Of a stretch of DNA of 31,897 nt, positions 288-31,897 are shown piece after piece. The stretch's first letter is position 1. Each line of letters begins with the position of its first letter. This stretch comes from a virus. The translations under genes were made by a program, and so were the position numbers. Location: positions 1-31,897 of the IMG/VR virus record IMGVR_UViG_3300000973_000001; one strand, given 5' to 3'. Below the pieces are notes generated by a model, which saw only the letters and a program-made list of their open reading frames with translations, had not been told where the DNA came from and did no database searches.

Positions 288-291
288 ATTT

Positions 292-507: not shown

Positions 508-573
508 TTTTTACTTTTTTTAAATAAGCCTTCAACTTCTGCACATTAACGACTTTTGGTTTGTATGTCTTTA

Positions 574-1074
574 CTACAGTACCCATCCTTGATATGTTGC
601 GTCTTTGTCGGGATATACATCCTCATTATTGTTCGTATTATACTCTGGAAACTTACCTATATTAAATGTAACGTAATCAATCATCCTTCTTGTATAATAT
701 TCTGCAAAATCTCTCTCTTTATTTACAAGATAGTCTATCTCGTTCTTTTCGATACTCTCTGCATTCTCACTCTGATGCTTGTAAACCCCACCATTTTTAA
801 TCTGATACGCTGCAAAAGGCAAGTAATCTGACATAGCATAGTGGATCAACATTGGCTGTACGTATTTATTCACTAATGTAAGGTAATCACCCGTTAGAGT
901 GTCCGCTATAATGTCTGCACTTATCTTATCATACAACTTTGTACCTAAGTAATTTTGTATATGTATCTCTTGAGCGATCTTAATGAACTGTATAAACTTA
1001 TCTGTATCTACATTACCATCAAGAATCGTATTCTTAACTAAGTCCTTTCGTGATATGAATAGTGCTGTTGCCAT
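574..1074 (-). CDS. Head-tail adaptor/connector-like protein (166 aa)
   Basis: Start abuts the portal stop (shared nt 1074). The N-terminal pattern (...IKIAQEIHIQNYLGTKLYDKI...) resembles gp6-type head-tail connector proteins. Confidence 0.4.
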   Translation of the reverse strand: MATALFISRKDLVKNTILDGNVDTDKFIQFIKIAQEIHIQNYLGTKLYDKISADIIADTLTGDYLTLVNKYVQPMLIHYAMSDYLPFAAYQIKNGGVYKHQSENAESIEKNEIDYLVNKERDFAEYYTRRMIDYVTFNIGKFPEYNTNNNEDVYPDKDATYQGWVL

Positions 1075-2846: not shown

Positions 2847-3208
2847 AATACAATAAAGTCGTTGTCGTATGACGTATCACTTGTGTACACGTCTTTGTTT
2901 ATGGTGTAGTAATCATTTGTGGTTTGATCAACAGTTTGTGCTGTGCAAAAAACCTTGTCTTTGTAAATTACTGTACCGTCTGTTTTTGTGATTAACATAT
3001 CATAATACCTACCCTCCTTCAAACTCAAAGCTTGTGAGAAAGACAAGTAATTACGATCCGTTGTAGGAGATACACTATAAGACGATGTTGTGTTTGTAGT
3101 ATCGTCTGTTAATTTAAAGGTCGCTGATGTAACGTATTCCCTTGGTATCACCTTTATGGTCTGTGCGTCTGTACTTGTAGTAAGTAGTTTCATACAAATA
3201 TAACGCAT
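2843..3208 (-). CDS. Hypothetical structural-module protein (121 aa; the start could be the ATG at 3193)
   Basis: ATGA stop/start overlap with the portal gene (2843..2846). Thr/Ser-rich beta-type composition. Confidence 0.5.
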   Translation of the reverse strand: MRYICMKLLTTSTDAQTIKVIPREYVTSATFKLTDDTTNTTSSYSVSPTTDRNYLSFSQALSLKEGRYYDMLITKTDGTVIYKDKVFCTAQTVDQTTNDYYTINKDVYTSDTSYDNDFIVL

Positions 3209-3225
3209 AAAGTAAATCTTTTTGT

Positions 3226-3250
3226 AAAAAGAGAGGTGGCTTTTGCCACC
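3226..3250 (-). terminator. Rho-independent terminator after the DUF3846-like gene
   Basis: Gene-sense GGTGGC-AAAA-GCCACC followed by TCTCTTTTT, 18 nt after the stop. Confidence 0.65.
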
Positions 3251-3268
3251 CCCCTGTAACCGATAGTG

Positions 3269-3580
3269 TTACTCTGTAACTTTGTCGGCTTTTTGATTCG
3301 CCATAAACGTTTCTCTAACTACGTCTTTGTACGATTTCATATCCTCATCTGATACTAACAACACATCACCTACTATCGGCTGTCCTGCTATTTTTGAGGC
3401 TACGTGGTTTAACGGTAACTTCTGTAATAATCCCTCTTCGTTTGCCCACATATACCTATCATCTGATAACCATACTCTTTCAATCAATCCGCCTACGGCT
3501 TCTTGTTTTTTCTCTAACCCATCAAACGTACCTAATTCTACGTTGTTGTTCGTCTTAATGTAAAAATACTGCTCTGTCAT
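3269..3580 (-). CDS. DUF3846-like protein (103 aa), insulated moron-like cassette
   Basis: Motif GGLIERVWLSDDRYMWANEEGLLQKLPLNHVA...GQPIVGDVLLV matches the DUF3846 pattern (GG.iE.v.l.d...W.nEEG.l..LplN...ivG). It has its own promoter (3704..3734) and terminator (3226..3250). Confidence 0.6.
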   Translation of the reverse strand: MTEQYFYIKTNNNVELGTFDGLEKKQEAVGGLIERVWLSDDRYMWANEEGLLQKLPLNHVASKIAGQPIVGDVLLVSDEDMKSYKDVVRETFMANQKADKVTE

Positions 3581-3703
3581 AATCGTGTGTTTTTAATTTT
3601 GTCATTCATATTACTCTCATCCCGTGAACAACTTACGGTGTCATACACTTTTCGCCTGTGTACTCGGTCTTGGTACCTTTTGGTTTTACCCTCAACAACA
3701 ATA

Positions 3704-3734
3704 CAAATATACAATACTTATTGAATTATCCAAA
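3704..3734 (-). promoter_or_regulatory. Bacteroidota-type promoter P1: TTTG-N19-TATATTTG
   Basis: In gene sense it reads TTTGGATAATTCAATAAGTATTGTATATTTG. CAAA is at 3731..3734 and CAAATATA at 3704..3711 on the plus strand. Confidence 0.6.
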
Positions 3735-3760
3735 ATTTTTGATAAAAAACTTTAATGCAC

Positions 3761-3789
3761 AAAAAAAGAGGGACATTACGCCCCCCTCT
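3761..3789 (-). terminator. Rho-independent terminator after the tube-like gene
   Basis: Gene-sense AGAGGG-(11 nt)-CCCTCT followed by TTTTTTG. Confidence 0.6.
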
Positions 3790-3807
3790 CTATAAAATCC
3801 ACAATGA

Positions 3808-4353
3808 TTATGAATTTGTACCCGATGTAACTGTAGGACTTGTTGTTAATCCTGCAAATGGATCAGCTTCTGTCGCTCCCTCAAGGAAGTTAGCAGGAAC
3901 TTGCTCCTGTGCGTTTAGTGTTAATGTGTATCCGCTAAGATCACCCATCGCTGCACCTGTTACAATCGTACCACCTGTCACTTCGCAACCGTGTTCAGTA
4001 CCCATCAAGAATGCATTACCGTTATAGTCGTGTACTACAACGTGTGGTCTCCCGTAAGAAAGCAACTTAATCTCTTTGTGATCCTCTTTTGTTAATTTAG
4101 TTAACGTGAGGTTTAATGTTTGGTCAAAGAAGGTTGTACCGTTTTCTCGGGATGAAGTGATCGCCTGTTCAAATGAACTGTTACCTTTCACTTCGTACTT
4201 AAAAGCTGTAATCGATCCTAAATCGTCAATTACATCTGTATCTGTTGAATCGTATGTCGCTGTTGCACCGTAATTGATGAAGTAAATAGCTTTAATGCCA
4301 CCTACAACGTCTTTACAAGGTACTTTGCGCCCTAATGTTAAATCACAAGCCAT
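3808..4353 (-). CDS. Abundant virion protein, tail-tube-like (181 aa)
   Basis: Follows the capsid gene and is itself followed by a strong terminator. The N-terminus (MACDLTLGRKVPCKDVVGGIKAIYFINYG) resembles tube proteins of Bacteroidota siphophages. The assignment is tentative. Confidence 0.4.
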   Translation of the reverse strand: MACDLTLGRKVPCKDVVGGIKAIYFINYGATATYDSTDTDVIDDLGSITAFKYEVKGNSSFEQAITSSRENGTTFFDQTLNLTLTKLTKEDHKEIKLLSYGRPHVVVHDYNGNAFLMGTEHGCEVTGGTIVTGAAMGDLSGYTLTLNAQEQVPANFLEGATEADPFAGLTTSPTVTSGTNS

Positions 4354-4365
4354 ATTTTATGTATT

Positions 4366-4399
4366 AAAAAAGGGTAGGCAGATACAAAACCACCTACCC
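4366..4399 (-). terminator. Rho-independent terminator after the major capsid gene
   Basis: Gene-sense GGGTAGG-(14 nt)-CCTACCC followed by TTTTTT. Confidence 0.7.
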
Positions 4400-4422
4400 C
4401 TTTTGATTATATTAATCTATTC

Positions 4423-5376
4423 TTAGTTTGCAGAGTTTGTGATACCGTATGTTACGATGTCATCTACAATACCGTACTGTACACCTGCAGTAAATCGCAT
4501 TACTACACGTACATTCTGTGAACCATCAATGTCAGCCATATCGATAACTTTCACTTCGTTGTGGTCTGCTAATAAACCTGTACCAAAGAATAAGTTAGAC
4601 TTTTCTGCTGCAATCGCTTTGTTGTCTCCTAATCCGTTAGCTACAAATAACTTCACTCCATCAAAAGATAATGATCCGTTATTCCACCATTGTGTACCTT
4701 GTGCGTTAGTACCTGCAGCACCTAGTCCAGACGCTCCAAATCCACCTAATGCACGTACATATGCACGAGCAATGTTCTGTGATACATAGATGTTTAAGTC
4801 TTCACTTCCGTATAATGCAGAAGGAATAGCATCAACGATCTTCCCTAACTCTGTGATAACGTTAGAAGAAGTAACTGTTGCTCCTGTAACCTCTTGTCCG
4901 CTTGGTAAGTCAGCGTCTGCAGCAACGATTGTGCTTAACCCGTCAAACTCTCCATTGTTTGCAGTTGATCCACCCCAAATAGACTGCTCTGTTTTCTGTG
5001 CTACTTTTGCAGCAACGTGTGAAATTAAGAAATCACTAAATTTAGGAGGTAAACTTTGGAATGCAGATACTCCCATTTGTAACGCTTCCCAATCTGATTG
5101 GAAGTCTTTTTTACATAATTGTAAGTTCACTTGTTGAAACTCTGGTTGTAACACACGCTCTGTAAGTGTGATAGTAGAAGTAGGATCGAAATCACAAGTA
5201 GCGTCTTTAACGATAGCGTTAGTATCCACTTTCTTGATAACCTCTTTGAACTTCACATTTGGTTTTACAGTAATACCACCGTTATCGATAGTAGAACCAG
5301 ACAAAAGTGCTGCAGAGATGTATTCACCTGCAAACTCTCCTGCGTAAGTAGTAGTAATTGATGTTGTAGTTGCCAT
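4423..5376 (-). CDS. Major capsid protein (317 aa)
   Basis: Immediately downstream of an acidic scaffold-like gene and followed by a strong terminator. The N-terminus (TTYAGEFAGEYISAALLSGSTIDNGGITVKPNVKFK) is typical of HK97-fold capsid proteins of flavobacterial phages. Confidence 0.8.
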   Translation of the reverse strand: MATTTSITTTYAGEFAGEYISAALLSGSTIDNGGITVKPNVKFKEVIKKVDTNAIVKDATCDFDPTSTITLTERVLQPEFQQVNLQLCKKDFQSDWEALQMGVSAFQSLPPKFSDFLISHVAAKVAQKTEQSIWGGSTANNGEFDGLSTIVAADADLPSGQEVTGATVTSSNVITELGKIVDAIPSALYGSEDLNIYVSQNIARAYVRALGGFGASGLGAAGTNAQGTQWWNNGSLSFDGVKLFVANGLGDNKAIAAEKSNLFFGTGLLADHNEVKVIDMADIDGSQNVRVVMRFTAGVQYGIVDDIVTYGITNSAN

Positions 5377-5384
5377 TTTTATTC

Positions 5385-5996
5385 TTAGTTATTAATATTA
5401 GAAATTTTGTTTAGTACTCTGTCAAAAGTAGTAACCGCTCTACCTTGTGCATACAAGTTTTGCTTACGCTTTGTAGTAGCCTCTGGACTGTGTTTCATTG
5501 GCTCTGCAGCAGGTTTAGACAATTCCTCTTTTAACTCTTCTTCTTCTGTTGGCTGTACTGCTTCGGCTTCCACCTCAACTTCTGCCGCTTCAACAGGCTC
5601 TTCCTCTTTCGGTGCGCCCATCTCTTCGATCATAGCCTTAATCTCTTCTACAACGCTCTTAACCTCGTTAAGTTCTTCTTTTGTAGCGTAACCCATTTCT
5701 TGTTTTTCTTCTTGTGGGTCTTGTTCTAGGTTTTCTGACATATCCTCTTGTATTGATTTGATTTCATTAATAATCCCTTCATCCACTACCACAAGTTGTC
5801 TGCCGTCTTCTAATTCATACAGTCCTTCGGGTAATGGTACTTTCTCATCTTCGGTCTTGATAAACACCTCTTCGTCTGCGTGAAAATGTTCAGACTCCAA
5901 TAGTGTACCGTTCGCAAGTTTCATCTCTTCTAACTTTACCTCTGTCGATAAGTTGAGCATATCTGTAATGCTGTTAAGTATTTCTGTTGCTTTCAT
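5385..5996 (-). CDS. Scaffolding protein (203 aa, Glu-rich)
   Basis: Highly acidic, helical low-complexity sequence (EEEPVEAAEVEVEAEAVQPTEEEELKEEL). Positioned between the protease and the capsid gene. Confidence 0.6.
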   Translation of the reverse strand: MKATEILNSITDMLNLSTEVKLEEMKLANGTLLESEHFHADEEVFIKTEDEKVPLPEGLYELEDGRQLVVVDEGIINEIKSIQEDMSENLEQDPQEEKQEMGYATKEELNEVKSVVEEIKAMIEEMGAPKEEEPVEAAEVEVEAEAVQPTEEEELKEELSKPAAEPMKHSPEATTKRKQNLYAQGRAVTTFDRVLNKISNINN

Positions 5997-5997
5997 A

Positions 5998-6405
5998 TTA
6001 CACTCCTTGTATTGCTTGTTGCGCTCTTGTAATTGCAGTCATTCCTGCTTCTGCTTCCTCCATTATATTATCACAAGCCGATACAACATTAGTGATCTCT
6101 AATAGTTTCTTGTCTAACTGTGAAGGATCTAAGTCCATTTCACGTAACGTGTCTTGTGCATCTTCTATTTGACCTCGCATTTTTTGCGCTGCACGTAAAA
6201 TGCCTTCTGCATCATTGTTTGCTTTTTCTAAGCCAACTTGTATTCCACCTAATTCATCGAATACGCTATCCAATTCGCCTATATCCATTCTTAAATCAGA
6301 CTTTACGTCATCAATTTCGCTTTGTAAGTTTTTAGTGTCAAACTTAGCTAACATAACACTTTCGCTACTTAGCTTTTCTAGGATTCTCTTTACGTGTGGT
6401 TTCAT
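5998..6405 (-). CDS. Coiled-coil hypothetical head-module protein (135 aa)
   Basis: ORF abutting the scaffold gene, with heptad-like helical sequence. Confidence 0.5.
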   Translation of the reverse strand: MKPHVKRILEKLSSESVMLAKFDTKNLQSEIDDVKSDLRMDIGELDSVFDELGGIQVGLEKANNDAEGILRAAQKMRGQIEDAQDTLREMDLDPSQLDKKLLEITNVVSACDNIMEEAEAGMTAITRAQQAIQGV

Positions 6406-6441
6406 ATAGTATTAACGTTTATTGATTATAAATTTGCATAT

Positions 6442-7128
6442 TTAACTTGATATTTGAGACAATGCGATCTCTTTTGTAACTGAAGAGTCTTTAACCGATG
6501 TAATAATTAATGTCTCTGTAATTGTAGAACCTGTATCGTTTACCTGCAACGGTGCAAGTTGTGCGTTGGTTAAACCATCTGTTGAAGCGCTTGTAACACT
6601 TACACTAAAGTTGTTCAATGTATTAATAGTGTAGCCGTTTGTACCTGTTGTGAATATATCAATAGAAATTGAAACAATGTTTGTGGGTAATTGAAATGAA
6701 GTAACAGGCGTTCCTAAATCATAATGATATACAGTAATAGGATCTGTAACTGTATCTCTTTTTACATCTCCTTGACATTCCGCACAATCAGCGTAACTAA
6801 ATGCTCTTTCCCACTCGTGTCCTGACGTTTCATCATCTCTATTTATAACCTCGTAACAACCGTCTTTTGCATCGTGTTCAGAATCTACATAGTATATATT
6901 ACCTACAGTTAGCTCTGTATCACCAAAGAAATGATGTGTTTTACTATGTCCACAAAGTTGCATTTTATATCCGTACTGTCCATTACTCGGTGTGATTGCT
7001 GTAGATGTAATGTTACCTATCCCTTGATTATAATAATCACCACCGCAACAGTTTGCACTATACGTGCCATTTCTACATAAACAAGCTCGTTTACCGTTAT
7101 GTGGTACTGGTGTTCTTCTATCCTTCAT
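6442..7128 (-). CDS. Cys-rich structural protein (228 aa)
   Basis: N-terminus KRACLCRNGTYSANCCGGDYYNQGIG, further Cys pairs (CAEC), and a Thr/Ser-rich beta-type C-terminal half. Start abuts the protease stop (shared nt 7128). Confidence 0.5.
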   Translation of the reverse strand: MKDRRTPVPHNGKRACLCRNGTYSANCCGGDYYNQGIGNITSTAITPSNGQYGYKMQLCGHSKTHHFFGDTELTVGNIYYVDSEHDAKDGCYEVINRDDETSGHEWERAFSYADCAECQGDVKRDTVTDPITVYHYDLGTPVTSFQLPTNIVSISIDIFTTGTNGYTINTLNNFSVSVTSASTDGLTNAQLAPLQVNDTGSTITETLIITSVKDSSVTKEIALSQISS

Positions 7129-8177
7129 TATTTCTTAGGTACGCAATTAGGCACTTTTTTGCCGTTTTTCATTTTCCATCCTACCATTTCGTATCCATCC
7201 CAACAAGGTGCTTCTAACTTAACGTCATCTGCAATACCCTCAAAGGCTTTTATCTTGCTCTCTGCCCAACCTTTGGCTGTTTTACCACCCCACAATAGGT
7301 ATGAGATATAACCACAGTCCTCTGGAGTGCCTTGATCGTAATAAGTCTCTGCACGTGATAAATATGAAAACATACGTTTAATCGTATCCATACTCACCGC
7401 TCTTCCTGCTGCCAAATCCGCTGCACGTACTTTCCCAACTTGTGTAGCACACTTGTTTCCTACCTTCTCGTTCAATTCCATACCACGCTTTGCGTTGTTT
7501 TTTACGGAATCAGGATAATCGCTAAACGACTCCATTTCCACACGCTGTCCGTCCTTATAACGTTTGTCCTTACGTATGATACCTTTGATCGTTGATAGTA
7601 AAGACTCTGCCTCTAACTCCTCTATTGCACTCAAGTCCTCTGATAAACCTCGATCACTAGGAGTTTCCATTTTATCTGCAAAGTAGCCTTCTATTGAGAA
7701 TCCTTTAACCTTACCTGTCTTAACGTAATTATTCCAAATATCGTCATTCTCCACTTTAACAGTACCCATCCACGTTCCTAATGGTACGTCCATACCGTAT
7801 AACACGCTTTTATCCTTCTCTTTATCTTCTACAATCCAAGACTCTACTAATGTAAGTCCTTGTATAGACTCTTCGTGTTCTAATGTACTGTTGTGTTGGT
7901 TATTTCTTTGCAAATACAGTTGTGATGCCTTACGTACAGTATCACGTGAAAAGTAAATGTAGTATTCATCTTCACCGTTACGTCTGTATATAGGTTTGTT
8001 AGGGGTGAGTAACGCTCCAATAAGAATCTTCTTGTCCTTATCTACTTCTGCAAATTGTACTTGTTGTGATTTTAACGCTACAAAATCCTCTTCGATTGCA
8101 GGGTTTTCTACAATACTGATAGCCTCTATGCCGTTGTACTCGTCTGTTTCGTCTATTACTAATTCAACTATTCTCAT
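7128..8177 (-). CDS. XkdF-like prohead protease with a C-terminal extension
   Basis: N-terminal half (GIEAISIVENPAIEEDFVALK...ILIGALLTPNKPIYRR...STLEHEE...LVESWIV...GFSIEGYF) matches the XkdF/S78-type phage protease pattern. The C-terminal CWDGYEMVGWKMKNGKKVPNCVP motif is common in marine phage head proteins. Confidence 0.7.
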   Translation of the reverse strand: MRIVELVIDETDEYNGIEAISIVENPAIEEDFVALKSQQVQFAEVDKDKKILIGALLTPNKPIYRRNGEDEYYIYFSRDTVRKASQLYLQRNNQHNSTLEHEESIQGLTLVESWIVEDKEKDKSVLYGMDVPLGTWMGTVKVENDDIWNNYVKTGKVKGFSIEGYFADKMETPSDRGLSEDLSAIEELEAESLLSTIKGIIRKDKRYKDGQRVEMESFSDYPDSVKNNAKRGMELNEKVGNKCATQVGKVRAADLAAGRAVSMDTIKRMFSYLSRAETYYDQGTPEDCGYISYLLWGGKTAKGWAESKIKAFEGIADDVKLEAPCWDGYEMVGWKMKNGKKVPNCVPKK

Positions 8178-9934
8178 TATCCTATACTTGCTGTTTCTAC
8201 TATGTTTCTATCTAATGCCTGTGCATTTGTTACATCATTTGATACAACGTATGCTTTTACAGGTTGTCTATCTCTTTGTCCTATTGCCTGTGCTAATTGA
8301 TTTTCGGGTGATGCTCCTACAACATTAAACGCAGGTGCTTGTTGTGGTGCTGATGCTTGACCTCTCATAGACGGTGCTTGTGCGCCTGCACTCTTCTTAT
8401 TTGACTTTAAATCCGATATAGCCTTTGCTGCACCCGCTACACTACCTGCAATCGATACTCCTGCCATTACGTTGTTTATACCAACCCAAGGCATACCACC
8501 TGTTAATGGTGAGGCTGCAATAGACTTTGCATTTGCTACTGCTGTGTTCGATATGATTTTACTAATTGCACCTACTTGCTCTGTAACAATACCTGCTATT
8601 GCTAGTGCTTTACCCTCTTTACCAAACGCTTCTGCTACTTGTTGTAAATTACCAAAGAACTCCTGTGCCTTAGCAACCTGTGATTGACGTTCTTCCTCTG
8701 CAATTTCGATCATTGAAATTTTGTGTTCTGTACGTGCTTTTGATATTAACTTGTTACGCTCATCCTCATTTGTTACCTCTTGGTTTATAAAGCGCATTTG
8801 TTCTTCCAATTTAGCATCGTTTTCCATACGTTGCCTTTCAAACTCACTTGCACCGATCATAGCCAATTCATTACCTATCTCGATACGTTCCTTGTCAAGT
8901 GATAAATCGTTAGACTTCTGTTCAGCCATCATACCTGTTACACGTGCATTAATTGCTAGTAACTCGTTTTCTGCTCGTATAAACTCCAACCTATCTTCAT
9001 CAAGACCACTTAACTCGTATTGTGCTTTTGCTGCGTCTCGTATCTTCTCTGCATTTTTGGTCATTACCTCTGCCTGTTCCTCTAATATACCCTTGAGTTT
9101 ATTATTGGCTTCTATCCTTGCTGCAATACCCGAACGCTCATCGTCTCTTATCTGTCTCTGTTCCTCTGCTAATATATCGTACTGCTCGATAAGACCTTGG
9201 TTAATTGCTTCTGACCTTTCTGCTTCTTTATTAAGAGTAACCACTGCCTTAGCCTGTTGGTACGTCTTTGTAGTATAGTCTGTAACCGCTGATACAACCT
9301 TTGAAACAGTCTCTTTAACCTTGTTAAGCGAATCGTCTTGTCCTGTCAATACATCAACCGACTCCTTACCTGCTTCTTTTAATGAATCTACTGCACCCGA
9401 AAAATCACCCTTAAAGAACTTAACCGCTGCTTGACCTAATAACCCCAGTACTTCTTTAGCTTGTTCTATACGATCGTAAAACCCTTCTTTTATTGCATTA
9501 CCTAGATCATATACAGACTGTTTTGGATCTTCAAATATAGACTTAAAAAACTGCTGTACCTTGCCAAAGTTATTGAACACAAAGTTCGTAAAATCTGTGA
9601 TCACCTGCGTTGCCATTGTACCCGCTACTTGAAATGCATCTAAATACGTTTGGTTATTCTTAAAAGCTTCTGCAAGTGCATTAAATAGTTCGTTCGCAAT
9701 AAAGAAAACACCCGAAGCCTTAAACAGGTTTCCAATAGATGTAAGTTGCTTGAACATATTCTTCAAACCCTTCGTGCCTTTTGTCGCACCCTTACCTACA
9801 TCTGCTAACTCCTTACCGCCTTTGCTTGTGTCATCTAATTTATCTACTATTGTACCTAATAGGTCAACGACATCTTTAAGGTCTTTTTCGGACTTACCTG
9901 TTTTTACTTCAAGTTCTATTTCTCTTCTTTCCAT
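8177..9934 (-). CDS. Tape-measure-like coiled-coil protein (585 aa)
   Basis: Long helical, Ala/Glu/Lys-rich sequence with a hydrophobic Gly/Ala segment (PWVGINNVMAGVSIAGSVAGAAKAI) near the C-terminus. Confidence 0.45.
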   Translation of the reverse strand: MERREIELEVKTGKSEKDLKDVVDLLGTIVDKLDDTSKGGKELADVGKGATKGTKGLKNMFKQLTSIGNLFKASGVFFIANELFNALAEAFKNNQTYLDAFQVAGTMATQVITDFTNFVFNNFGKVQQFFKSIFEDPKQSVYDLGNAIKEGFYDRIEQAKEVLGLLGQAAVKFFKGDFSGAVDSLKEAGKESVDVLTGQDDSLNKVKETVSKVVSAVTDYTTKTYQQAKAVVTLNKEAERSEAINQGLIEQYDILAEEQRQIRDDERSGIAARIEANNKLKGILEEQAEVMTKNAEKIRDAAKAQYELSGLDEDRLEFIRAENELLAINARVTGMMAEQKSNDLSLDKERIEIGNELAMIGASEFERQRMENDAKLEEQMRFINQEVTNEDERNKLISKARTEHKISMIEIAEEERQSQVAKAQEFFGNLQQVAEAFGKEGKALAIAGIVTEQVGAISKIISNTAVANAKSIAASPLTGGMPWVGINNVMAGVSIAGSVAGAAKAISDLKSNKKSAGAQAPSMRGQASAPQQAPAFNVVGASPENQLAQAIGQRDRQPVKAYVVSNDVTNAQALDRNIVETASIG

Positions 9935-16538: not shown

Positions 16539-16922
16539 TTATATCCTTTCTTCGATCGACTCTCTAATTGCCGCTCTTTTGCAACTGGTCGAACAAAACT
16601 TATCTTCTATATCTTCAACTGCATTCCCACAATGTTCGCATCCGAAATGGTGGTAATCATTGATAATGTGTTCTGCAATCTCATAATAATTTACTGTCGA
16701 CACAAAAGCATTTGCATAATCTAACGCTAACCCTTCTCCCTCTATTTCTAAAATCGAGTACACGTGATCACTTAACGCTTCTGCCATATCGCTTTGGTCT
16801 GTGCCGTGCTCATCGTACCACGTTTGACCATCGCCATCAAAAATCTCTAACGCAACTCTCCACGTTGCATAATTTGTCCATCCGTTGTATTGTGTGTTTT
16901 TCATACTTTGTGTGTTTTCCAT
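16539..16922 (-). CDS. Acidic protein with an NGWTNYATW motif and a C-terminal Cys4 zinc-ribbon-like tail (127 aa)
   Basis: Motifs YNGWTNYATWRVALEIFDGD and CEHCGNAV...CSTSC. Second gene of the insulated cassette and followed by terminator 16477..16504. Confidence 0.55.
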   Translation of the reverse strand: MENTQSMKNTQYNGWTNYATWRVALEIFDGDGQTWYDEHGTDQSDMAEALSDHVYSILEIEGEGLALDYANAFVSTVNYYEIAEHIINDYHHFGCEHCGNAVEDIEDKFCSTSCKRAAIRESIEERI

Positions 16923-17349: not shown

Positions 17350-17577
17350 ATGAAAGAAACATTTAAAAACGCTCACAAGGAATGGTTAGATTATGTAACC
17401 GAAAATGACCCAGAGTTTACAGAAACAGGATACGTTTTGTGGGAAATTGAAGAAGGTGATTGTTTATGGATATGTTACACAGACTCAAACGACAATAACG
17501 GAATCAAGGTTGCACAGTTATGGAATGAGTACGGTGCAAATTATTTCGATATTTACAAGCACGAAAGAGAGTTTTAA
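17350..17577 (+). CDS. Small strongly acidic protein (75 aa), the only plus-strand gene
   Basis: No competing minus-strand ORF in 17271..17573. ATG preceded by an AATTAACACACACAATT leader. By my count 17 D/E against 6 K/R. Confidence 0.55.
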   Translation: MKETFKNAHKEWLDYVTENDPEFTETGYVLWEIEEGDCLWICYTDSNDNNGIKVAQLWNEYGANYFDIYKHEREF

Positions 17578-18737
17578 CGAATAGCGTATCGACCGAAGTT
17601 CGGTTTGGATAGCTTAGAGTAACACGCATAACGTATCGCATCAGTCGTATGGTTATACATATCGATCGGTACGTTTAGCACATTCCCGTTCTTATCCTCT
17701 TTCCATTTGTAGTTCCTAAACTCCTTGATCACATTATCACTTCTCTTTGTAACAAACAAATGATACCTCTTTAACATATCAATACCGATGTTAATACTGT
17801 CTCTACCCTTCTCACTAGGTTTAACATTCCAACCCATTTGCCTTAACTCCACTATACTCTTTGGCTCTGCACTATCAGCAAATATCTCTGCTCTCCTGTC
17901 GATCTCAAGAGTACGTAACTCATTACCAATGTCTCTATTGGTCATACCCGTTCTATAAATGAGTTCATTAAAGTAAAGGTTGTTATCCTTCTTATGTACA
18001 GATACAAGTGTAGTAGGGTCATTAGAATATCCAAAGTCCATACCGTATGATATTAGCTGTGCATCTTGTGGTATCTTCTCTATAGGAGTGTAGTTAAATA
18101 TGAGTGTCTTACCTATACCTACCTCACCAAGACCGTAAACCCTCCAGTAGTTTTCATCTGTCTCCTTGAGTAACTCGATCTCATCCTTAATCGACTGTGG
18201 TAAGAATGGATTGTTCTTATATGTGGTTATGTGAAACTCTGCATCCGCTCGTGTTTTAACCTTCTCATATATCCAATGGAACTCGTCTGACGGGTTGTAA
18301 TCAAGGATAATTCTTCCAGTAGTACGGAATACCAACTGTTGCCAATCTTCCCAATGTAACTCGTTAGCTTCGTTTATAAACAGTAAATCCCTTTTACGAC
18401 CCCTCACCTTTTGCGGTTGGTCTAAGGATATAAACTCTATAAGGTTGCCATTAAGTATGTACTCGGCTGATGACTTGTTGTGATACTTATCGTCATACAA
18501 TTCATAGTCTTGTAATATCTGTATGAAATCTCTCATAGCAGAAGTACGTAAAGCAGGATAAGTCTTTCGACATATTGTAACAACCTTCTTCTTGTTATTT
18601 AACGCATACCCAAAGATTAACCACATTAGTATATTGTAGGTCTTACCTGATCGAGTACCACCCTGCTCAATGACTATCCTCTTGTCTGTCTTTTCGAGGT
18701 GTCTAAATACTATGTTACTCCGAATCTTCCTCATCAA
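17574..18737 (-). CDS. terL: Terminase large subunit
   Basis: Walker A GGTRSGKTY, Walker B LLFINEANE and nuclease motif YGMDFGYSNDPT. PBSX/XtmB-type layout. Confidence 0.85.
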   Translation of the reverse strand: MMRKIRSNIVFRHLEKTDKRIVIEQGGTRSGKTYNILMWLIFGYALNNKKKVVTICRKTYPALRTSAMRDFIQILQDYELYDDKYHNKSSAEYILNGNLIEFISLDQPQKVRGRKRDLLFINEANELHWEDWQQLVFRTTGRIILDYNPSDEFHWIYEKVKTRADAEFHITTYKNNPFLPQSIKDEIELLKETDENYWRVYGLGEVGIGKTLIFNYTPIEKIPQDAQLISYGMDFGYSNDPTTLVSVHKKDNNLYFNELIYRTGMTNRDIGNELRTLEIDRRAEIFADSAEPKSIVELRQMGWNVKPSEKGRDSINIGIDMLKRYHLFVTKRSDNVIKEFRNYKWKEDKNGNVLNVPIDMYNHTTDAIRYACYSKLSKPNFGRYAIR

Positions 18738-19068
18738 TAGTATCTACAATCTCTACTCTAAAGTGATTGTCTGTACCCATATCTACTTCTTGACGTTCTA
18801 CATATCCACGTTCTTTACCTCGTGTCTTTAAGTAAAAGATAATACTGGTCTCTCTGTTCTCCTTGATATTCTCAAACAACTTACTCTCTGCAAAGTCAAG
18901 ACAAACGTTATGTATTGAGTCTACCTCTTTACGATACTCTTCATCTTCATTATACCAAGCGTAATGTGTAGATCGATGTATCCCTGCATTTTGTGCTGCA
19001 ACAGATACTATCCCTAGATTTTTCTCTAAAGATTGTATCATCCTTTTTTTAGTGTCGGATGTGTTCAT
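18715..19068 (-). CDS. terS: Terminase small subunit (HTH)
   Basis: 117 aa directly upstream of and overlapping terL. The pattern LGIVSVAAQNAGIHRSTHYAWYNEDEEYRKEV...IFYLKTRGKERGY is typical of small terminases. Confidence 0.6.
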   Translation of the reverse strand: MNTSDTKKRMIQSLEKNLGIVSVAAQNAGIHRSTHYAWYNEDEEYRKEVDSIHNVCLDFAESKLFENIKENRETSIIFYLKTRGKERGYVERQEVDMGTDNHFRVEIVDTIDEEDSE

Positions 19069-19069
19069 A

Positions 19070-19618
19070 CTACTCTACCTCACTTTTCTTAATCTCAAAC
19101 TCTTCCATACAATGTGGGCATATCAATTCTACTGTTTCAATGTGTGTCGCTTCTGCACTAAATCGGTCTTCTAAGTCTGTACGTTTCTTAGTTACCTCTT
19201 CTTCTGTGATCGGCTTAACGTTAAACCCTACACTTTCGTCTAACCAACTTGTTAAATCTACATTTTGGAAATAGGTTTGCATTTCTTCAAACTGTCCTAT
19301 CTCTCGTAACTCTACAACAAGTTCGTCATTATCCCACATAGTCATTTCGTGAGTCTTGTTATCTGCTATACGATACGCTTTTGCTTTACGATCATCTAAG
19401 TCTGTGATAATACAGGGTGCTGTCTCATATCCTAATTGCATTAGTGCTTTAAACCTTGCGTGTCCCGTAATGATAACATTGTTCTTGTCTAATACTAATG
19501 GCTGATTAAAGCCGTAATCCTTAATAGACTTCTTTAACGCTTCTACCGTTGTATCGTTCTTACGTGCATTTCTCCAATAGGGTTTTACCTGTGTAAGCTT
19601 AATCTCTTGTACCTTCAT
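19070..19618 (-). CDS. ParB/Srx N-terminal-domain protein with a C-terminal CPHC zinc-ribbon-like tail (182 aa)
   Basis: VKPYWRNARKND...LKKSIKDYGFNQPLVLDKNNVIITGHARFKALMQLG is the ParB-N/sulfiredoxin-fold signature. Confidence 0.6.
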   Translation of the reverse strand: MKVQEIKLTQVKPYWRNARKNDTTVEALKKSIKDYGFNQPLVLDKNNVIITGHARFKALMQLGYETAPCIITDLDDRKAKAYRIADNKTHEMTMWDNDELVVELREIGQFEEMQTYFQNVDLTSWLDESVGFNVKPITEEEVTKKRTDLEDRFSAEATHIETVELICPHCMEEFEIKKSEVE

Positions 19619-20255
19619 AATACTTCTTTTTTACTTGTATCTGTTTTTTAGACTCCCACGCCTTCTTATACTCTGCGTCTGCAAATAGTTTACTAAATCC
19701 TGTGATATGTTTCAAACGTAGCAGTTCTTCTGCTTCCATACCTAGTTCTTCACAAATATCGTGATCTTCCCATCCATTGTCAAGCATACCGAACACAATG
19801 CTACTCATTCCTTTAATTGAGTGCTTACCTCTTGCTCGGTTATGTCTCACCGTTGATGCCATACGATCATTGATGTCTTTATCTAAGACTACAATAGGCA
19901 ACTTACCGTGATTTCTTTCACGTATATCATCGTGTGTCTTACAGGTTAAGTACCTATGGAATCCATCTATAATAACGTATTTATCAATGTTTTTATCATA
20001 AATTGTTACTACAGGCTGTGTATAGCCATCGTGTTTGATCGAAGTGTATAGTAATTTCATCTCGATCGTTGCTACACTATTAGGGTTATAGTCATTTGCC
20101 TGCACCTTATCTACGTCAACCCAATGTATTCTGTTTACGGGTTGTGTCTTTAAGGGAGACATTTTATCTAACTCCTCCTTTACACGTTCGATGTACTCAA
20201 TCTTATCTAAATCAGATACATCATCTCTTGTTAAATACTCTCTAATCTTATCCAT
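19599..20255 (-). CDS. IbrB-like ParB-domain protein (218 aa)
   Basis: ANDYNPNSVATIEMKLLYTSIKHDGYTQPVVTIYD...YVIIDGFHRY, the ParB-like nuclease-domain pattern seen in partners of PAPS-reductase-type proteins. Confidence 0.6.
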   Translation of the reverse strand: MDKIREYLTRDDVSDLDKIEYIERVKEELDKMSPLKTQPVNRIHWVDVDKVQANDYNPNSVATIEMKLLYTSIKHDGYTQPVVTIYDKNIDKYVIIDGFHRYLTCKTHDDIRERNHGKLPIVVLDKDINDRMASTVRHNRARGKHSIKGMSSIVFGMLDNGWEDHDICEELGMEAEELLRLKHITGFSKLFADAEYKKAWESKKQIQVKKKYYEGTRD

Positions 20256-21387
20256 ATATATACTTGTTACCTTTTGTCCATTTCGTTGTTATACCTTTCT
20301 TCCACTTCTTCCAATTCAATATGTCGGGTTTCTCTGTAAAGTTTCTAAGCTTTGCCATATCCACATCGTTTGTAAGTACAGTATTAATCTGCGCTCTATG
20401 CAAATCCTGTATGTGTTTCATATCCTCATACTGCTTATCCTGTTTCTCCCACGTTTTAAAGAACCTTTTCTTGTGATCCTCATTTTGCACTAGGTTTTCT
20501 GTAAGGTAATCCCTGTATTCTCGCCAGTCCTTAAACATAAACGGTAACTCCTTAACAAAGAAATCCTTTTTCATCTTACCTGCTGTATTGATACCGCTCA
20601 TTCTCTTAGTTAGTGCTACCCACGTCTCTTGCTCTACCTCCTGCAAATATTCCATTACCTGTAACGCTGTCTCGTGATGTAAATTAGACACACGCATACT
20701 TCTTATTGGAACACCGTGCATATACTGATAATCATATACCTTAGTGTATGGCCAGTCGTTATCGTGTATAGCCTTCCACACGTCAGTATAAGACCAATCA
20801 TAAATAGGATAAAACGTAAAATGCTCTTCTTTCTTACTAAGTCTTTTACCCCACGTAATATCTTTATACGTCAATGCTTCTGTCATTGCTAAGTATCTTC
20901 GTGGACTTTCCTCTGCCCGTACTCCACCTAAGAAGCACATACGCTCACCTTTGTAATGGTGTGCAGGTATTGCAGAGAATAGATCATAAAACCTATCAGT
21001 ACCATAAACGTTTTCTGTAAGAGCCATAGGGTTTCTAGGTCTCATAGTCTCTACTCCCTCTTCCCACGCTGTAATCCATTGTTTGATATTAGACGATGCG
21101 TTGAATATCTTGAATGGTATCTGTAACCACATTGGATCTATACGTGGATCAGAAAACACATCCTCCATATAATCTATAACCGCTTGCCACTCTGCTTCTT
21201 GATCTAAGAACATCACCTTTAACGGCAACCTATTCTTTTCTTCTGCAACAATAAGAGCAAGGTATAGGGTAACAGTAGAATCCTTTCCCCCACTAAATGA
21301 TACCACTACATTTTCAAACTCATCGAACAGGTATCTCATTCGATCTAATGATTCGTCAAATACATTTTGTTTCTTATAAATCCGCAT
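20248..21387 (-). CDS. IbrA-like PAPS-reductase/PP-loop ATP-pyrophosphatase family protein (379 aa)
   Basis: PP-loop VVVSFSGGKDSTV near the N-terminus. The long C-terminal extension (..SMRVSNLHHETALQVMEYLQEVEQETW..) resembles the DUF3440 region of IbrA. Confidence 0.7.
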   Translation of the reverse strand: MRIYKKQNVFDESLDRMRYLFDEFENVVVSFSGGKDSTVTLYLALIVAEEKNRLPLKVMFLDQEAEWQAVIDYMEDVFSDPRIDPMWLQIPFKIFNASSNIKQWITAWEEGVETMRPRNPMALTENVYGTDRFYDLFSAIPAHHYKGERMCFLGGVRAEESPRRYLAMTEALTYKDITWGKRLSKKEEHFTFYPIYDWSYTDVWKAIHDNDWPYTKVYDYQYMHGVPIRSMRVSNLHHETALQVMEYLQEVEQETWVALTKRMSGINTAGKMKKDFFVKELPFMFKDWREYRDYLTENLVQNEDHKKRFFKTWEKQDKQYEDMKHIQDLHRAQINTVLTNDVDMAKLRNFTEKPDILNWKKWKKGITTKWTKGNKYIYG

Positions 21388-22150
21388 ACATCTTATGTAA
21401 TTTATGTGCCTTCTCTGTAAGATTCTTTGAGGTTGGCATATGATAATTATTATTCTTGTGTGGGTAAATCTCTGTTGTTGGGTGCATATCGATCAAACGC
21501 TCATCTAACAAACACATCTCTTGCTCTTTGTATAGTGTTTTAATACCACCGTTCATTACTGCATTGTGTTCTATAATACTCCCAAGATACCTGTAATTCT
21601 TGTAACCACTTATGTACGCATTAAGAGACAACATTATATCGTCATATAAATAAGGCTTAATAACCTTACCTAATACACTATCAGCTACATCGTGTCTAAA
21701 TATTAAACCACCACCTGTATTGACTAGGTTCTGTTTAAGAAACTTATGCTCGTATCTCTTACGTGCCATCATCTTCTCTGTATTAACCCTAACCCAATTT
21801 GTACTAATCATACCTGCATTTCTATTCTCTAACAAAAACTCAACAGGTGCTTCATAGTTTACCTTGTCCATCATAATAGCGTCATCATCGTTCATACAAT
21901 ATATGTCGCTTGGATACGCTTTCATCAGTTCGCAACGTGCAACATAAGGTGCTACACGTTTACTACTAACAATTGATCCCGAGATCATATGACCATAATT
22001 GTTCATTAAATATGCGTGGTCGCTATAACTGTAACATTGTAAATATACATATATGTTCCAATCCTTGATCACCTCAAGAGTCTGTATAGAATTTAACAGC
22101 TTGTATAACGACTGTGGTCTTACGCTTGGTATATATAACCCTTTTCTCAT
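21374..22150 (-). CDS. GT-A-fold glycosyltransferase-like protein (258 aa)
   Basis: N-terminal LYIPSVRPQSL and acidic CMNDDDAIM (DxD-like) patch. The assignment is tentative. Confidence 0.35.
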   Translation of the reverse strand: MRKGLYIPSVRPQSLYKLLNSIQTLEVIKDWNIYVYLQCYSYSDHAYLMNNYGHMISGSIVSSKRVAPYVARCELMKAYPSDIYCMNDDDAIMMDKVNYEAPVEFLLENRNAGMISTNWVRVNTEKMMARKRYEHKFLKQNLVNTGGGLIFRHDVADSVLGKVIKPYLYDDIMLSLNAYISGYKNYRYLGSIIEHNAVMNGGIKTLYKEQEMCLLDERLIDMHPTTEIYPHKNNNYHMPTSKNLTEKAHKLHKMYADL

Positions 22151-22980
22151 TTTGTTACTATATAATAATTATTAAACTCTATAACATTGCTTTCACAAAA
22201 CAACATCTCTAAGAACTCTCTTGTATGCTTGTGATGGTATATCTGTTTCTTCACACGCTCATACGTTACGGGTTCATAATCCTCTTTGTAAAACATTAAG
22301 AAGTGGCTGTCTGCATACTCACCTACTCTTGTAAGATACTGCGGTATGACGTAATTCATACTGCCGTATAACGATACTACTACTGTGGGTTTATCCTTGT
22401 GTATCATTGTTCGGTATGTCTCGAAACGATCTATATTAAATCGCTTACCCTTGTGTCTTTCACGTGCGATCTCTATCATTCTTCTACTTGGATCAATACC
22501 ACAATAACCTTCAAACCTATCTCTGTCGATTAAAAACACATTTGACATATCTAAAAATAAACCTGTTCCACATCCAATATCATACACGTGCTTACCCTCT
22601 ATATATCTTTCTAACATCTCCCACACCCTTCTATTCTCTTCCCAATCTTTATCTTCGTTGAAGAGCATATCGTAATAATCTGCAATATCATTGTACTGTG
22701 TATGTGAGAATGATTTATTAATGAGTATCGTCTCGTCTATTGGCGCACCCATTGTCCAATACTTCCAACCCTTGTGTTCCCATACTGTAAACGGCTTTCT
22801 CCAAAAATACTCTGTCTTACCCTCTTCACGTATCGCTATTACAATCTTATCAAACTCAGGGTCATCTCCCCATTTCTCACGTAACGTGTACCAGTGTGGT
22901 GCTTTGTGTGCATACGTCTTTGCAAACTTCCAATCCTTAGCTTCTAAGAGATCGAACATATCATCGTAACTATAACGCAT
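22147..22980 (-). CDS. Class I SAM-dependent methyltransferase fused to an N-terminal domain of about 95 aa and unknown function
   Basis: Motif I VYDIGCGTGLF and post-I CGIDPSRRMIEIA. The N-terminus has WKFAKTYAHKAPHWYTLR...ILINKS. Confidence 0.55.
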   Translation of the reverse strand: MRYSYDDMFDLLEAKDWKFAKTYAHKAPHWYTLREKWGDDPEFDKIVIAIREEGKTEYFWRKPFTVWEHKGWKYWTMGAPIDETILINKSFSHTQYNDIADYYDMLFNEDKDWEENRRVWEMLERYIEGKHVYDIGCGTGLFLDMSNVFLIDRDRFEGYCGIDPSRRMIEIARERHKGKRFNIDRFETYRTMIHKDKPTVVVSLYGSMNYVIPQYLTRVGEYADSHFLMFYKEDYEPVTYERVKKQIYHHKHTREFLEMLFCESNVIEFNNYYIVTK

Positions 22981-23443
22981 ACAACTTCTCTTCTTCTTTA
23001 CGTTTCTTATCCTCTTGTATCTTCTCTTCGTTCTTTAAACTCGTTAAACGAAAAGCCTCTGCCATACAATTATCTACGGCATCGTAAAACTCGGGATCGA
23101 TATACTTTAGCTTTGTCTGTAACGAACTTAGCTTAATAGAATTATCATCTACCATATCCGATAACACTTGCATCGTGTTCATTAACTCCTTGTCATAAAA
23201 ACAATACTGCTCGAACATTCTCTCTGCGTGTAGTACCGTTGCGTGATCGTATGACTTTTTGCCATTGTCTCTGTAAAACTTACCTATTCTTTCTAACGAC
23301 CATCCTAAGTTCTTTCTACACATTACAACGTGCAACGATCTGTATGTAACAATCTCTCTTCTTCTTGTGTTTTCAAACACGTTATATCCTGTGGTCTTTC
23401 GTATTGACCTTGCCCACGTTTGAGCCTTAATTTCACTTCTCAT
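22970..23443 (-). CDS. DnaA domain-IV-like DNA-binding protein (157 aa)
   Basis: TRRREIVTYRSLHVVMCRKNLGWSLERIGKFY....YDHATVLHAERMFEQ aligns with the DnaA C-terminal HTH pattern (R.R.v..R......SL.eIG..F...DHtTVlHA). Confidence 0.65.
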   Translation of the reverse strand: MRSEIKAQTWARSIRKTTGYNVFENTRRREIVTYRSLHVVMCRKNLGWSLERIGKFYRDNGKKSYDHATVLHAERMFEQYCFYDKELMNTMQVLSDMVDDNSIKLSSLQTKLKYIDPEFYDAVDNCMAEAFRLTSLKNEEKIQEDKKRKEEEKLYAL

Positions 23444-31622: not shown

Positions 31623-31897
31623 TTAAGGTGTATCATCTACTGCAATGGTCGCAATAGAATAAGCTATTTTTGCACTACTGTCATTATCATCTAAACAAGT
31701 TACTTGGATAAGGTTACTATCACTTGTGTCTAAATCGTTACCCCCTACTTTATAAAAAGTATCTGTAGCGAAATCTGTATCCAATGTTATTACTGCACTT
31801 GTTAAAGTTCCTGTAAGCAATATATCTATTGATTGACCTGCTTTTAGACCTTGTAAGGTTAGTGTAGCCGTTGTAATATTTCCTGTCAAATGGAAAA
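31623..31897 (-). CDS. Tail-fibre-like protein, C-terminal part (same gene as 1..287; nt 31849..31897 duplicate nt 1..49)
   Basis: The reading frame is continuous with 1..287 across the terminal overlap. The track start at 31889 is an internal TTG. Confidence 0.6.
   Translation of the reverse strand, partial: FHLTGNITTATLTLQGLKAGQSIDILLTGTLTSAVITLDTDFATDTFYKVGGNDLDTSDSNLIQVTCLDDNDSSAKIAYSIATIAVDDTP
31849..31897. repeat. Terminal overlap copy 2 (identical to 1..49); marks circular closure or terminal redundancy
   Basis: Exact 49/49 match to the window start. Confidence 0.95.

Follow-up and report, generated by a model that had tools for sequence, protein, structure and literature searches.

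The virus-derived stretch IMGVR_UViG_3300000973_000001 of IMG/VR (positions 1 to 31,897, which together form the window referred to below) carries, at positions 19,070 to 22,980, a block of five genes encoding an IbrA-type PP-loop enzyme, two proteins of the ParB/Srx fold, a glycosyltransferase (GT) and a methyltransferase (MTase). This block is one version of a widespread modular phage cassette, namely the version that combines a GT with an MTase fused to a small N-terminal domain, here called Ndom. The conserved core of the cassette consists of IbrA, IbrB, one to three small ParB proteins and usually Ndom, and the GT and the MTase are interchangeable tailoring genes, alongside a second, GT-like family (GTb), GNAT proteins, and decarboxylases of the AdoMetDC-like and PvlArgDC types. 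The core belongs to the already known IbrA/IbrB (YbdN/YbdM) kind; what appears to be new is the combinatorial cassette, a GT-A family without a Pfam model, GTb, Ndom, and a physical link to type IV-B CRISPR-Cas. In the literature consulted, which lay mostly outside subscription journals, we found no mechanistic study of IbrA/IbrB and no account of the cassette, and a prior description is possible. The best reading, held with moderate confidence, is that the cassette performs a post-replicative, ATP- or adenylation-dependent hypermodification of phage DNA with variable tailoring, for which we infer both the chemistry and the substrate.

The modular composition was established by two censuses. 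The census anchored on the GT started from 30 GT clusters with less than 90% identity, counted the 15 that are flanked on either side by 3 kb or more, and labelled the open reading frames (ORFs) of each locus with jackhmmer profiles seeded from the window proteins. IbrA and IbrB were each present in 15/15 loci, a small ParB in 14/15, Ndom in 12/15, and the MTase domain in 6/15. No IbrA, IbrB or small ParB was seen beside three of the 30 clusters (L015, L035 and L044), where the flank is at most ∼520 bp on at least one side and is too short for absence to be judged. The second census was anchored on IbrA, for which IMG/VR holds at least 246 matches. The best 80 loci gave 43 non-redundant ones with at least 2.5 kb of flank, and because the 80 were chosen as the most similar to the window IbrA, the resulting proportions describe this clade only. 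IbrB was found in all 43, a small ParB in 39, and Ndom in 31, and 31 carried some tailoring gene: a GT-like gene in 19 (the window GT family in 6, GTb/GTb2 in 15), a GNAT in 10, an MTase in 9, and a pyruvoyl decarboxylase (AdoMetDC-like or PvlArgDC) in 8. The tailoring genes were confirmed with Pfam (GNAT 1e-5, AdoMet_dc 7e-23, PvlArgDC 2.5e-40). A terminase was adjacent in 29 of the 43 loci, and the small terminase subunit (TerS) directly follows the cassette in many of them.

The order of the genes varies: the GT may precede IbrA, separate IbrA from IbrB, or follow the ParB genes. The terminases beside the cassette belong to different families, and the G+C content of the loci ranges from 30% to 68%. 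Shuffled order, differing terminases and the wide G+C range indicate that the linkage has been kept by selection, rather than by shared descent or residual synteny alone. The first-pass annotation, made from the letters of the window, had proposed that the five proteins act together, and this view is strengthened by their strict co-occurrence across lineages and by domain fusions; the terminase-adjacent position that it had noted is likewise recurrent. It had also described the association of an IbrA/IbrB pair with a GT and an MTase as the unusual part, and had treated the five genes as a natural unit. Neither description survives the census, in which GT-like and MTase genes are regular companions of the core, Microbacterium phages show the same layout, and everything outside IbrA, IbrB, ParB and Ndom is swappable. 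Its suggestion to survey gene neighbourhoods thus led to a divided answer: co-occurrence is conserved, but the five-gene set is not fixed. Finally, it had named a pair of findings that would count against joint action on DNA; GT and MTase structures near small-molecule, protein and glycan enzymes were indeed found (see below), whereas a lack of conserved co-occurrence is clearly false.

All features of the window given here lie on the minus strand, and the ORF listing confirmed the five ORFs with their exact coordinates. IbrA (20248..21387, 379 aa) is a PP-loop ATP pyrophosphatase of the IbrA/YbdN family, consisting of a PAPS_reduct domain and a DUF3440-like C-terminal domain. The former is well supported in Pfam (PF01507, 4e-17, 63 bits against a cut-off of 22.5), and the latter falls under its cut-off (PF11922, 1.8e-4, 21.8 bits against 25); among homologues DUF3440 reaches 42.7 bits at locus L126 and is weak at L005, and the C-terminal region is conserved in an 11-sequence alignment (A5). 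IbrA further matches phrog_2302 at 3.6e-80, and BLASTP aligns it with Escherichia coli K-12 YbdN at 26% identity over aa 1-270 (E 1e-29). IbrB (19599..20255, 218 aa) is a ParB/Srx protein of the IbrB/YbdM family, sharing 43% identity with E. coli YbdM over its full length (E 3e-59) and matching phrog_2159 at 3.1e-76; its ParB_N score of 22.5 lies below the Pfam cut-off of 26.3. Conserved motifs in IbrB are DGFHR (aa 97-101) and T-x-RHNRARG-x-H (aa 135-145). Given this homology to YbdN and YbdM, the two window proteins form a true IbrA/IbrB pair. IbrA-like genes are found in 222 of 50,697 cultured-phage records.

The PP-loop of IbrA, SGGKDS (aa 32-37, 21277..21294), is identified by sequence and conservation. 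It is invariant in alignment A5 and, like D62, E64, E160, R164, P194 and D197, is retained by 90% or more of 114 homologues, which bears out the initial assignment of a PP-loop enzyme. The motifs on which that annotation relied are all present, VVVSFSGGKDSTV among them, together with NDYNPNSV, DGYTQPVV and IIDGFHRY, GFNQPLVL, IITGHARF and CPHC, IPSVR and NDDD, and VYDIGCGTG. No alignment column holds cysteine in 50% or more of the 114 homologues. The absence of a conserved cysteine rules out CysH-type reduction as well as Fe-S or persulfide chemistry of the DndC type, and leaves ATP pyrophosphatase activity, so that adenylation is a reasonable expectation for a cysteine-free PP-loop protein of this kind.

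Genes of the IbrA type are annotated in virome papers as ‘PAPS reductase’ (3′-phosphoadenosine-5′-phosphosulfate reductase), an auxiliary metabolic gene (AMG) that would act like CysH and boost sulfate assimilation by the host (e.g. PMC12323421). The Pfam PAPS_reduct match and the usual annotation, including that of PHROG 2302, speak for such a role, but we consider it effectively refuted. Besides the lack of any conserved cysteine, the catalytic C-terminal cysteine (ECGLH-type) is absent, and the window protein scores 17-22 bits against cysH models with cut-offs of 154-254 (21-45 bits against cut-offs of 154-413 for the CysH and CysD models together). The ParB partner is obligatory, and the DUF3440-like domain also argues against a CysH-type gene. 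Judged from these sequence features, the sulfur-AMG label is misleading for this IbrA clade.

The second ParB-type protein, ParB2 (19070..19618, 182 aa), is a small paralogue consisting of a ParB_N domain (2.1e-9, 37.7 bits against a cut-off of 26.3) and a short C-terminal region ending in CPHC. It matches phrog_620 at 1e-45, and these matches, together with the phrog_2159 and YbdM similarity of IbrB, bear out the earlier call of two ParB/Srx proteins. Residues 1-148 align with the N-terminal ParB domain of phage ParB-DNA methyltransferase fusions (phrog_498 5e-34, PADLOC MTase_II 8e-24); unlike the fusions, ParB2 lacks a methyltransferase domain, and its catalytic partners are separate proteins. 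Such fusion genes are also found upstream of terminases. ParB2 matches Noc/ParB models as well, but a chromosome or plasmid partition protein was rejected, as ParB2 has only 182 aa, TIGR00180 scores 37 bits against 58, and the Pfam list of the genome includes no ParA. Cassettes elsewhere carry one to three such small ParB genes.

The glycosyltransferase of the block (21374..22150, 258 aa) had been called a GT-A enzyme from two short motifs, IPSVR and NDDD, and its predicted structure confirms this call, placing it in a rare GT-A family without a Pfam model. The AlphaFold2 model (pLDDT 83, pTM 0.84) gave 355 PDB matches at E<=1e-3 in Foldseek, the top ones all GT-A enzymes; GnT-I, GalNAc-T2, TarS, TarP and SpsA match at E ∼1e-8 with TM 0.5-0.6, and the nucleoside GT AvpGT is among the structural neighbours. 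By alignment and model position, DDD (aa 88-90, 21881..21889) is the predicted DXD motif for binding metal and nucleoside diphosphate (NDP)-sugar. As in GT-A enzymes, the motif comes after a strand, 83-86 in the model, and it is invariant in alignment A1, with D89 and D90 invariant in the broader alignment A2; DDD88-90, G147, G148, H195 and H252 are at least 90% conserved. The protein has no match in Pfam, PHROGs, NCBIfam or PADLOC and no profile match to PDB sequences. Homologues numbered 15 among 5.8e9 proteins and 204 cluster representatives among 1.84e9, and tblastn found none in the 50,697 cultured-phage records. The family occurs essentially only beside IbrA or CysH-like genes.

GTb is another family without a Pfam model, ∼220-260 aa long with a QDD motif, which recurs in the cassettes, often in tandem (L012 5012-6380, L030 7765-8535, L016 8418-9657, L106 3456-4773). 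GTb and GTb2 form one family (hhalign probability 100%), and the alignment with the window GT family is distant, with the DXD motifs in register (probability 79-87%).

The Ndom-MTase (22147..22980, 277 aa) is predicted to fold into two domains with high confidence (AlphaFold2 pLDDT 95), and it has 329 homologues. The initial description, methyltransferase motif I behind an unfamiliar N-terminal domain, was accurate on both counts. The class I S-adenosylmethionine (SAM) methyltransferase domain (aa 96-277, 22150..22695) carries motif I as VYDIGCGTG and matches Pfam Methyltransf_12, 25, 23 and 31 at aa 123-211 (∼1e-6). Foldseek with the whole protein, which is dominated by this domain, returns AzeJ, CalS10, CmoA and TylM1, that is, methyltransferases of small molecules and NDP-amino-sugars, and the 50 best-ranked folds in the PDB belong to small-molecule, sugar or RNA methyltransferases. 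On its predicted class I SAM fold, the enzyme is of the small-molecule or NDP-sugar type. A DNA methyltransferase (N6, N4 or C5) was rejected, in view of these folds and of the absence of a [DNS]PP[YFW] or PC-Q motif and of any N6_N4_Mtase or DNA-methylase Pfam match. In L011, L012, L024-27 and L031 the MTase domain is encoded by a gene of its own, and many cassettes lack it altogether. Among MTase-less cassettes, some carry a small GNAT gene between Ndom and the GT (L008 6615-7001, L009 2868-3242, L015 4931-5494), an arrangement which suggests that one and the same group is decorated by either methylation or acetylation.

Ndom itself (aa 6-95, 22696..22965) is an alpha/beta domain of ∼90 aa with the motif W-x-F-A-K-T-x(3,4)-P-H-x-Y ... 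K-Y-W-T-M-G ... I-N-R, in which P28, H29 and N88 are invariant. It has no Pfam, PHROG or significant PDB-sequence match. An ETS domain, indicated by insignificant PDB sequence profile matches (E 0.2-0.6), was rejected because the predicted structure consists of a single long helix and four or five strands, without a winged helix-turn-helix (HTH). A free-standing viral Ndom is present in BFVD (A0A516LRX9, TMt 0.85). Within the cassettes, Ndom either stands alone in an ORF of ∼100 aa, which in most cases immediately precedes the GT (L008, L009, L028, L031, L032, L038-41), is fused N-terminally to the MTase (the window, L005, L017, L020, L029), or carries other N-terminal extensions (L024, L036). 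At L076 it is fused C-terminally to an AdoMetDC-like enzyme, a single ORF (6309-7001) encoding the pyruvoyl decarboxylase (ETSHIVLHMW) and Ndom. Among cultured phages it was found only in the Microbacterium phages Leaf and Dewdrop. As Ndom is present in cassettes without a GT and is fused to two unrelated tailoring enzymes, these findings suggest that it serves as an adaptor which tethers tailoring enzymes to the core or to the substrate.

The tailoring enzymes raise the question of whether the target is a protein. According to this explanation, GT, MTase and GNAT would build a decorated glycan on the capsid, tail or another protein, and IbrA and IbrB would use ATP to phosphorylate or adenylate a protein side chain and so activate the acceptor residue or the donor. 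Protein O-GalNAc and GlcNAc transferases are among the Foldseek neighbours of the GT, the MTase resembles sugar methyltransferases, and BFVD contains GT-MTase fusions of giant viruses. The position of the cassette beside packaging and structural genes would also fit, as would the cassette of phage Leaf with its several GTs, Stealth-like protein and GNAT (see below). Moreover, the Srx branch of the ParB/Srx fold phosphorylates a protein residue, glycosylated mycobacteriophage virions exist, and phages encode GT and MTase sets for capsid glycans, as in the virion-glycosylation operons of actinobacteriophages. However, 12 of the 43 cassettes have no tailoring gene and retain IbrA, IbrB and ParB, which excludes glycosylation as the core function. 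The nearest relatives of ParB2 are the DNA-associated ParB domains of DNA methyltransferase fusions, and the type IV-B csf link described below points to nucleic acids. To our knowledge, the virion-glycosylation operons of phages contain no ParB or PP-loop genes. We therefore regard protein glycosylation as unlikely.

About equally improbable is a soluble product with which the phage would take over the host or counter its defences, for instance a modified nucleotide, an amino-sugar or a polyamine conjugate. In that case IbrB would be a kinase and IbrA an adenylyltransferase, which may make an ADP-linked donor for the GT-A enzyme, with the remaining enzymes tailoring the product. IbrB has weak SerK and SbnI kinase matches in NCBIfam, and the PAPS-reductase superfamily includes adenylyltransferases acting on sulfate or phosphate; matches of IbrA to CysD and FAD synthase were seen. 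A set of GT, GNAT, MTase and decarboxylase is typical of natural-product clusters, the GT counts AvpGT among its structural neighbours, and those of the MTase are small-molecule enzymes. Yet the one to three ParB paralogues of the DNA-methyltransferase type in each cassette would have no role, and 24 of the 43 core loci lack any GT, which means that supplying an ADP-sugar donor to a GT cannot be the general task of IbrA; that idea was demoted. In addition, the Pfam list of the genome shows no transporter or precursor genes, and the link to csf cassettes would be left unexplained.

Cultured phages place the cassette in defined genomes. The right end of the genome of Microbacterium phage Leaf encodes a Stealth-like protein, two Gly_transf_sug GTs, a hypothetical protein, a GNAT, an Ndom-MTase and IbrA, and the left end encodes three ParB proteins, an HTH protein and the terminase. 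The Ndom-MTase of Leaf matches the window protein over both domains (E 5e-11). This gene set is the same cassette interrupted by the genome ends, with its two parts at 88196-95340 (L001) and 1-9000 (L045) of Leaf, so that the termini of the packaged molecule separate IbrA from the ParB genes. Only the core is present in Flavobacterium phage FCL-2 and mycobacteriophage Bernardo, where it lies beside the terminase, and IbrA of Streptococcus phages lies in the replication module instead.

Such positions bring into play a role without covalent modification, in which IbrA, IbrB and ParB would handle DNA, by recognising pac sites or concatemers for the terminase or by co-activating late transcription, and GT and MTase would be passengers. 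The recurrent terminase neighbourhood and the genome ends inside the Leaf cassette would suit this role, and ParB proteins are DNA clamps. IbrAB have been named as activators of prophage genes, activating eib genes in E. coli, and the corresponding SEED label is quoted in PMC5874904 and PMC4490671. We nevertheless find a purely non-catalytic role quite improbable. The catalytic PP-loop motif is conserved in at least 90% of the homologues, the GT family is essentially confined to the neighbourhood of IbrA or CysH-like genes, and Ndom fusions tie tailoring enzymes to the core, unlike passenger genes. The location of IbrA in the replication module of Streptococcus phages also counts against a packaging function.

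The IbrA/IbrB pair of E. coli (on an island of strain ECOR-9) and its paralogues YbdN/YbdM of strain K-12 comprise the same two families as the phage pair, are likewise adjacent, and show an overlap of the two genes, as does the phage pair; PAPS_reduct is combined with DUF3440, which in the window IbrA scores below its cut-off. At L127, the chromosomal core pair of K-12 (ybdM and ybdN) occupies 3748-5570. Compared to these pairs, the phage cassette adds small ParB proteins, Ndom, the GT-A enzyme, the MTase, other tailoring genes and the location at the terminase.

A further relationship concerns type IV-B CRISPR-Cas. On the phage-like contig L006 (696-4801; also L007) we observed genes for a csf1-like Zn protein and a cas11-like protein, followed by csf2 (TIGR03115 4e-10), a homologue of the window GT (P0015, 35% identity, E 1e-21), a CysH-like gene of 263 aa and csf3 (TIGR03116 3e-10). 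This appears to be the first description of a glycosyltransferase within a type IV-B cassette. L126 (4305-10083, 58% G+C) holds homologues of csf2 and csf3, a 309-aa ORF, IbrA (PAPS_reduct and DUF3440), IbrB, a 263-aa ORF with a faint N6_N4 DNA-methylase match, and a CysH-like gene. Its csf genes have no Pfam match and are assigned solely by homology to the L006 proteins; on that sequence similarity, L126 would be a second, independent link between csf and Ibr genes. The CysH-like proteins of the csf loci join the IbrA profile at 6e-53. Like IbrA, the CasCysH protein of type IV-B systems is PAPS-reductase-like and lacks the catalytic cysteine, and its role is an acknowledged open question (PMC8175902). 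Differences are that CasCysH proteins are shorter (263 aa) and lack DUF3440, and that the window has no csf genes. A type IV-B CRISPR-Cas system was rejected as the identity of the window block, as csf1, csf2, csf3 and cas11 are all absent from the genome.

The case for DNA hypermodification as the function of the cassette is indirect, and draws on the homology of ParB2 to DNA methyltransferase fusions, analogies to DndB/DndC and DpdB, the csf link and the terminase position. Phage genes for late, post-replicative DNA modification typically lie immediately upstream of the terminase. Among named proteins with a ParB partner or a DNA substrate, the nearest to IbrA are DndC, BrxP and SspD. In DndB/DndC (phosphorothioation), BrxP (type 4 BREX) and SspD, members of the ParB superfamily and PP-loop ATPases of the PAPS-reductase superfamily are paired and act on DNA. 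The matches of IbrA to them are weak (DndC 6e-7 in NCBIfam; DndC 4.5e-8 and BrxP 5e-7 in PADLOC), and IbrA was rejected as DndC itself, with 28.6 bits against a TIGR03183 cut-off of 290 and no conserved cysteine. No DndA, DndD or DndE partner was found in a PADLOC scan of six proteins or in the genome Pfam list, and in contrast to Dnd the tailoring in these cassettes involves glycosyl, methyl, acetyl and amine enzymes instead of sulfur enzymes.

The hypermodification clusters offer a parallel in logic. In the thymidine hypermodification pathway, activation is followed by nucleophile substitution and variable tailoring. This logic of ATP-dependent activation on DNA, a nucleophile, and tailoring that can include decarboxylases is shared by the clusters that start from 5-hydroxymethyldeoxyuridine, the Dpd (7-deazaguanine) clusters and, as proposed, the cassette described here; DpdB, a ParB-like ATPase, takes part in Dpd (PMC12839542). 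The enzymes are nonetheless unrelated, and the window genome has no genes for synthesis of hydroxymethyluracil (hmU) or hydroxymethylcytosine (hmC), for TGT/DpdA or for preQ0. For the chemistry, TilS, QueC, and the NAD and GMP synthetases are PP-loop enzymes that adenylate an oxygen, and the adenylate is then displaced by an amine. TilS, which does so at a nucleobase carbonyl oxygen, may by analogy be a precedent for IbrA acting with an amine from the decarboxylase. It differs in belonging to another PP-loop family, in its RNA substrate and in having no ParB partner; TilS matches of IbrA are faint (0.02-0.06), and the resemblance is mechanistic only. The base-J glucosyltransferase JGT is a GT-A-like enzyme that glycosylates a DNA base. 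Neither JGT nor the virion-glycosylation operons are linked to IbrA, IbrB or ParB, and the window GT has no Pfam or PHROG family in common with them.

Under the hypermodification reading, the cassette genes would be expressed together with the packaging genes, and the ParB-family proteins would bind or clamp replicated phage DNA and recruit IbrA. IbrA would use ATP to adenylate the DNA at a base carbonyl or at a phosphate. AMP would then be displaced by a nucleophile, which is probably an amine and in some phages would come from the decarboxylase of the cassette, to yield a primary adduct. The GT-A enzyme would then transfer a sugar from a host NDP-sugar, and the MTase, held by Ndom, would methylate the appended group; a GNAT could likewise decorate the adduct before packaging. 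The outcome would be hypermodified virion DNA that resists host nucleases. The GT-A fold with its invariant DXD, the CalS10/TylM1-like MTase and the alternation of GNAT with MTase suggest that the group being tailored is a sugar or an amine. Adenylation followed by attack of an amine is suggested by the conserved, cysteine-free PP-loop protein and by the decarboxylase genes embedded in 8 of the 43 cassettes, since AdoMetDC homologues of phages are known arginine or ornithine decarboxylases (PMC9992855, PMC10407285).

Several observations weigh against this reading. Precursor pathways, such as those for hydroxymethyl-pyrimidines or deazapurines, are missing from the Pfam list of the genome, so its DNA would be canonical and without an obvious glycosyl acceptor unless IbrA installs one first. 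Modification of a Watson-Crick carbonyl would disturb base pairing. The closest structures of the GT act on proteins, teichoic acid or glycans, and the MTase does not resemble a DNA methyltransferase. The gene set of Leaf, with two GTs, a Stealth-like protein, a GNAT and an MTase, looks like one for building a glycan, and virion glycosylation is known in actinobacteriophages. The ParB/Srx fold includes kinases directed at proteins and small molecules, such as Srx, in keeping with the SerK and SbnI matches of IbrB. The decarboxylases of phages have been explained independently as polyamine genes (PMC9992855), and in E. coli the ybdNM genes are chromosomal, repressed by CitR and co-regulated with citrate genes (PMC9068703).

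A more far-reaching version, which we put forward only tentatively, is that IbrA, IbrB and ParB form an unrecognised machine that attaches, by PP-loop adenylation, an amine-derived adduct to canonical DNA, which Ndom-docked enzymes then glycosylate, methylate or acetylate, and that the CysH-like protein of type IV-B systems performs the same chemistry. Type IV-B would then be an RNA-guided modifier of nucleic acids.

As to the genomic setting of the block, the ends of the window (1-49 and 31849-31897) form an exact 49-bp terminal overlap, which indicates a circularly assembling, probably complete phage genome of ∼31,848 bp (∼31.85 kb). The same contig was also assembled from several marine samples. 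When cultured phages were searched at the DNA level, a single 288-bp match to a ParB gene was obtained and no relative of the region. A scan of the window revealed no tRNA. The genes of the block overlap their neighbours by 20, 8, 14, 4 and 11 nt, TerS (18715..19068; weak PHROG TerS matches, 2e-6) begins one base past the end of the ParB2 gene, and TerS overlaps the gene of the large subunit, TerL (17574..18737; Terminase_3 and Terminase_3C, ∼1e-22). Overlap at every junction and a block running into the terminase genes had been reported at the outset and were found as described. The overlaps of 4-20 nt indicate translational coupling. The stronger claim of one operon coupled to the terminase carries little weight, since all genes of the genome lie on the minus strand and a scan for promoter- and terminator-like sites showed no enrichment.

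Both terminase subunits are neighbours outside the cassette proper, and the nearest relatives of TerL are from Flavobacterium phages (42% identity). Directly upstream of the block lies a gene for a DnaA-C-like HTH protein (22970..23443; Bac_DnaA_C 7.5e-7, below the gathering score), which shares 11 nt with the beginning of the MTase gene. It is an occasional neighbour, found upstream in 7 of the 43 cassettes, and not part of the core. Downstream of TerL, a 127-aa protein (16539-16922) has a weak DUF7249 match and a C-terminal zinc-finger-like motif, CEHC...CSTSC, and recurs in the related phages L005 and L020.

Pairs of the IbrA/IbrB type are common in phages and occur on the chromosome of E. 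coli K-12, and they are routinely mislabelled as sulfur-metabolism genes. Recognising them as the fixed core of a combinatorial cassette narrows the likely chemistry to adenylation followed by tailoring, names two undescribed components, the GT-A family and the putative Ndom adaptor, and reveals a physical link between the cassette and the as yet unexplained CysH-like gene of type IV-B CRISPR-Cas. Tractable systems are available in the Microbacterium phages Leaf and Hendrix, both with the full cassette, in Flavobacterium phage FCL-2 and mycobacteriophage Bernardo, with the core only, and in the ybdNM genes of E. coli. If the target is DNA, the cassette would represent a new class of phage DNA hypermodification, with bearing on restriction evasion, phage therapy and sequencing bias.

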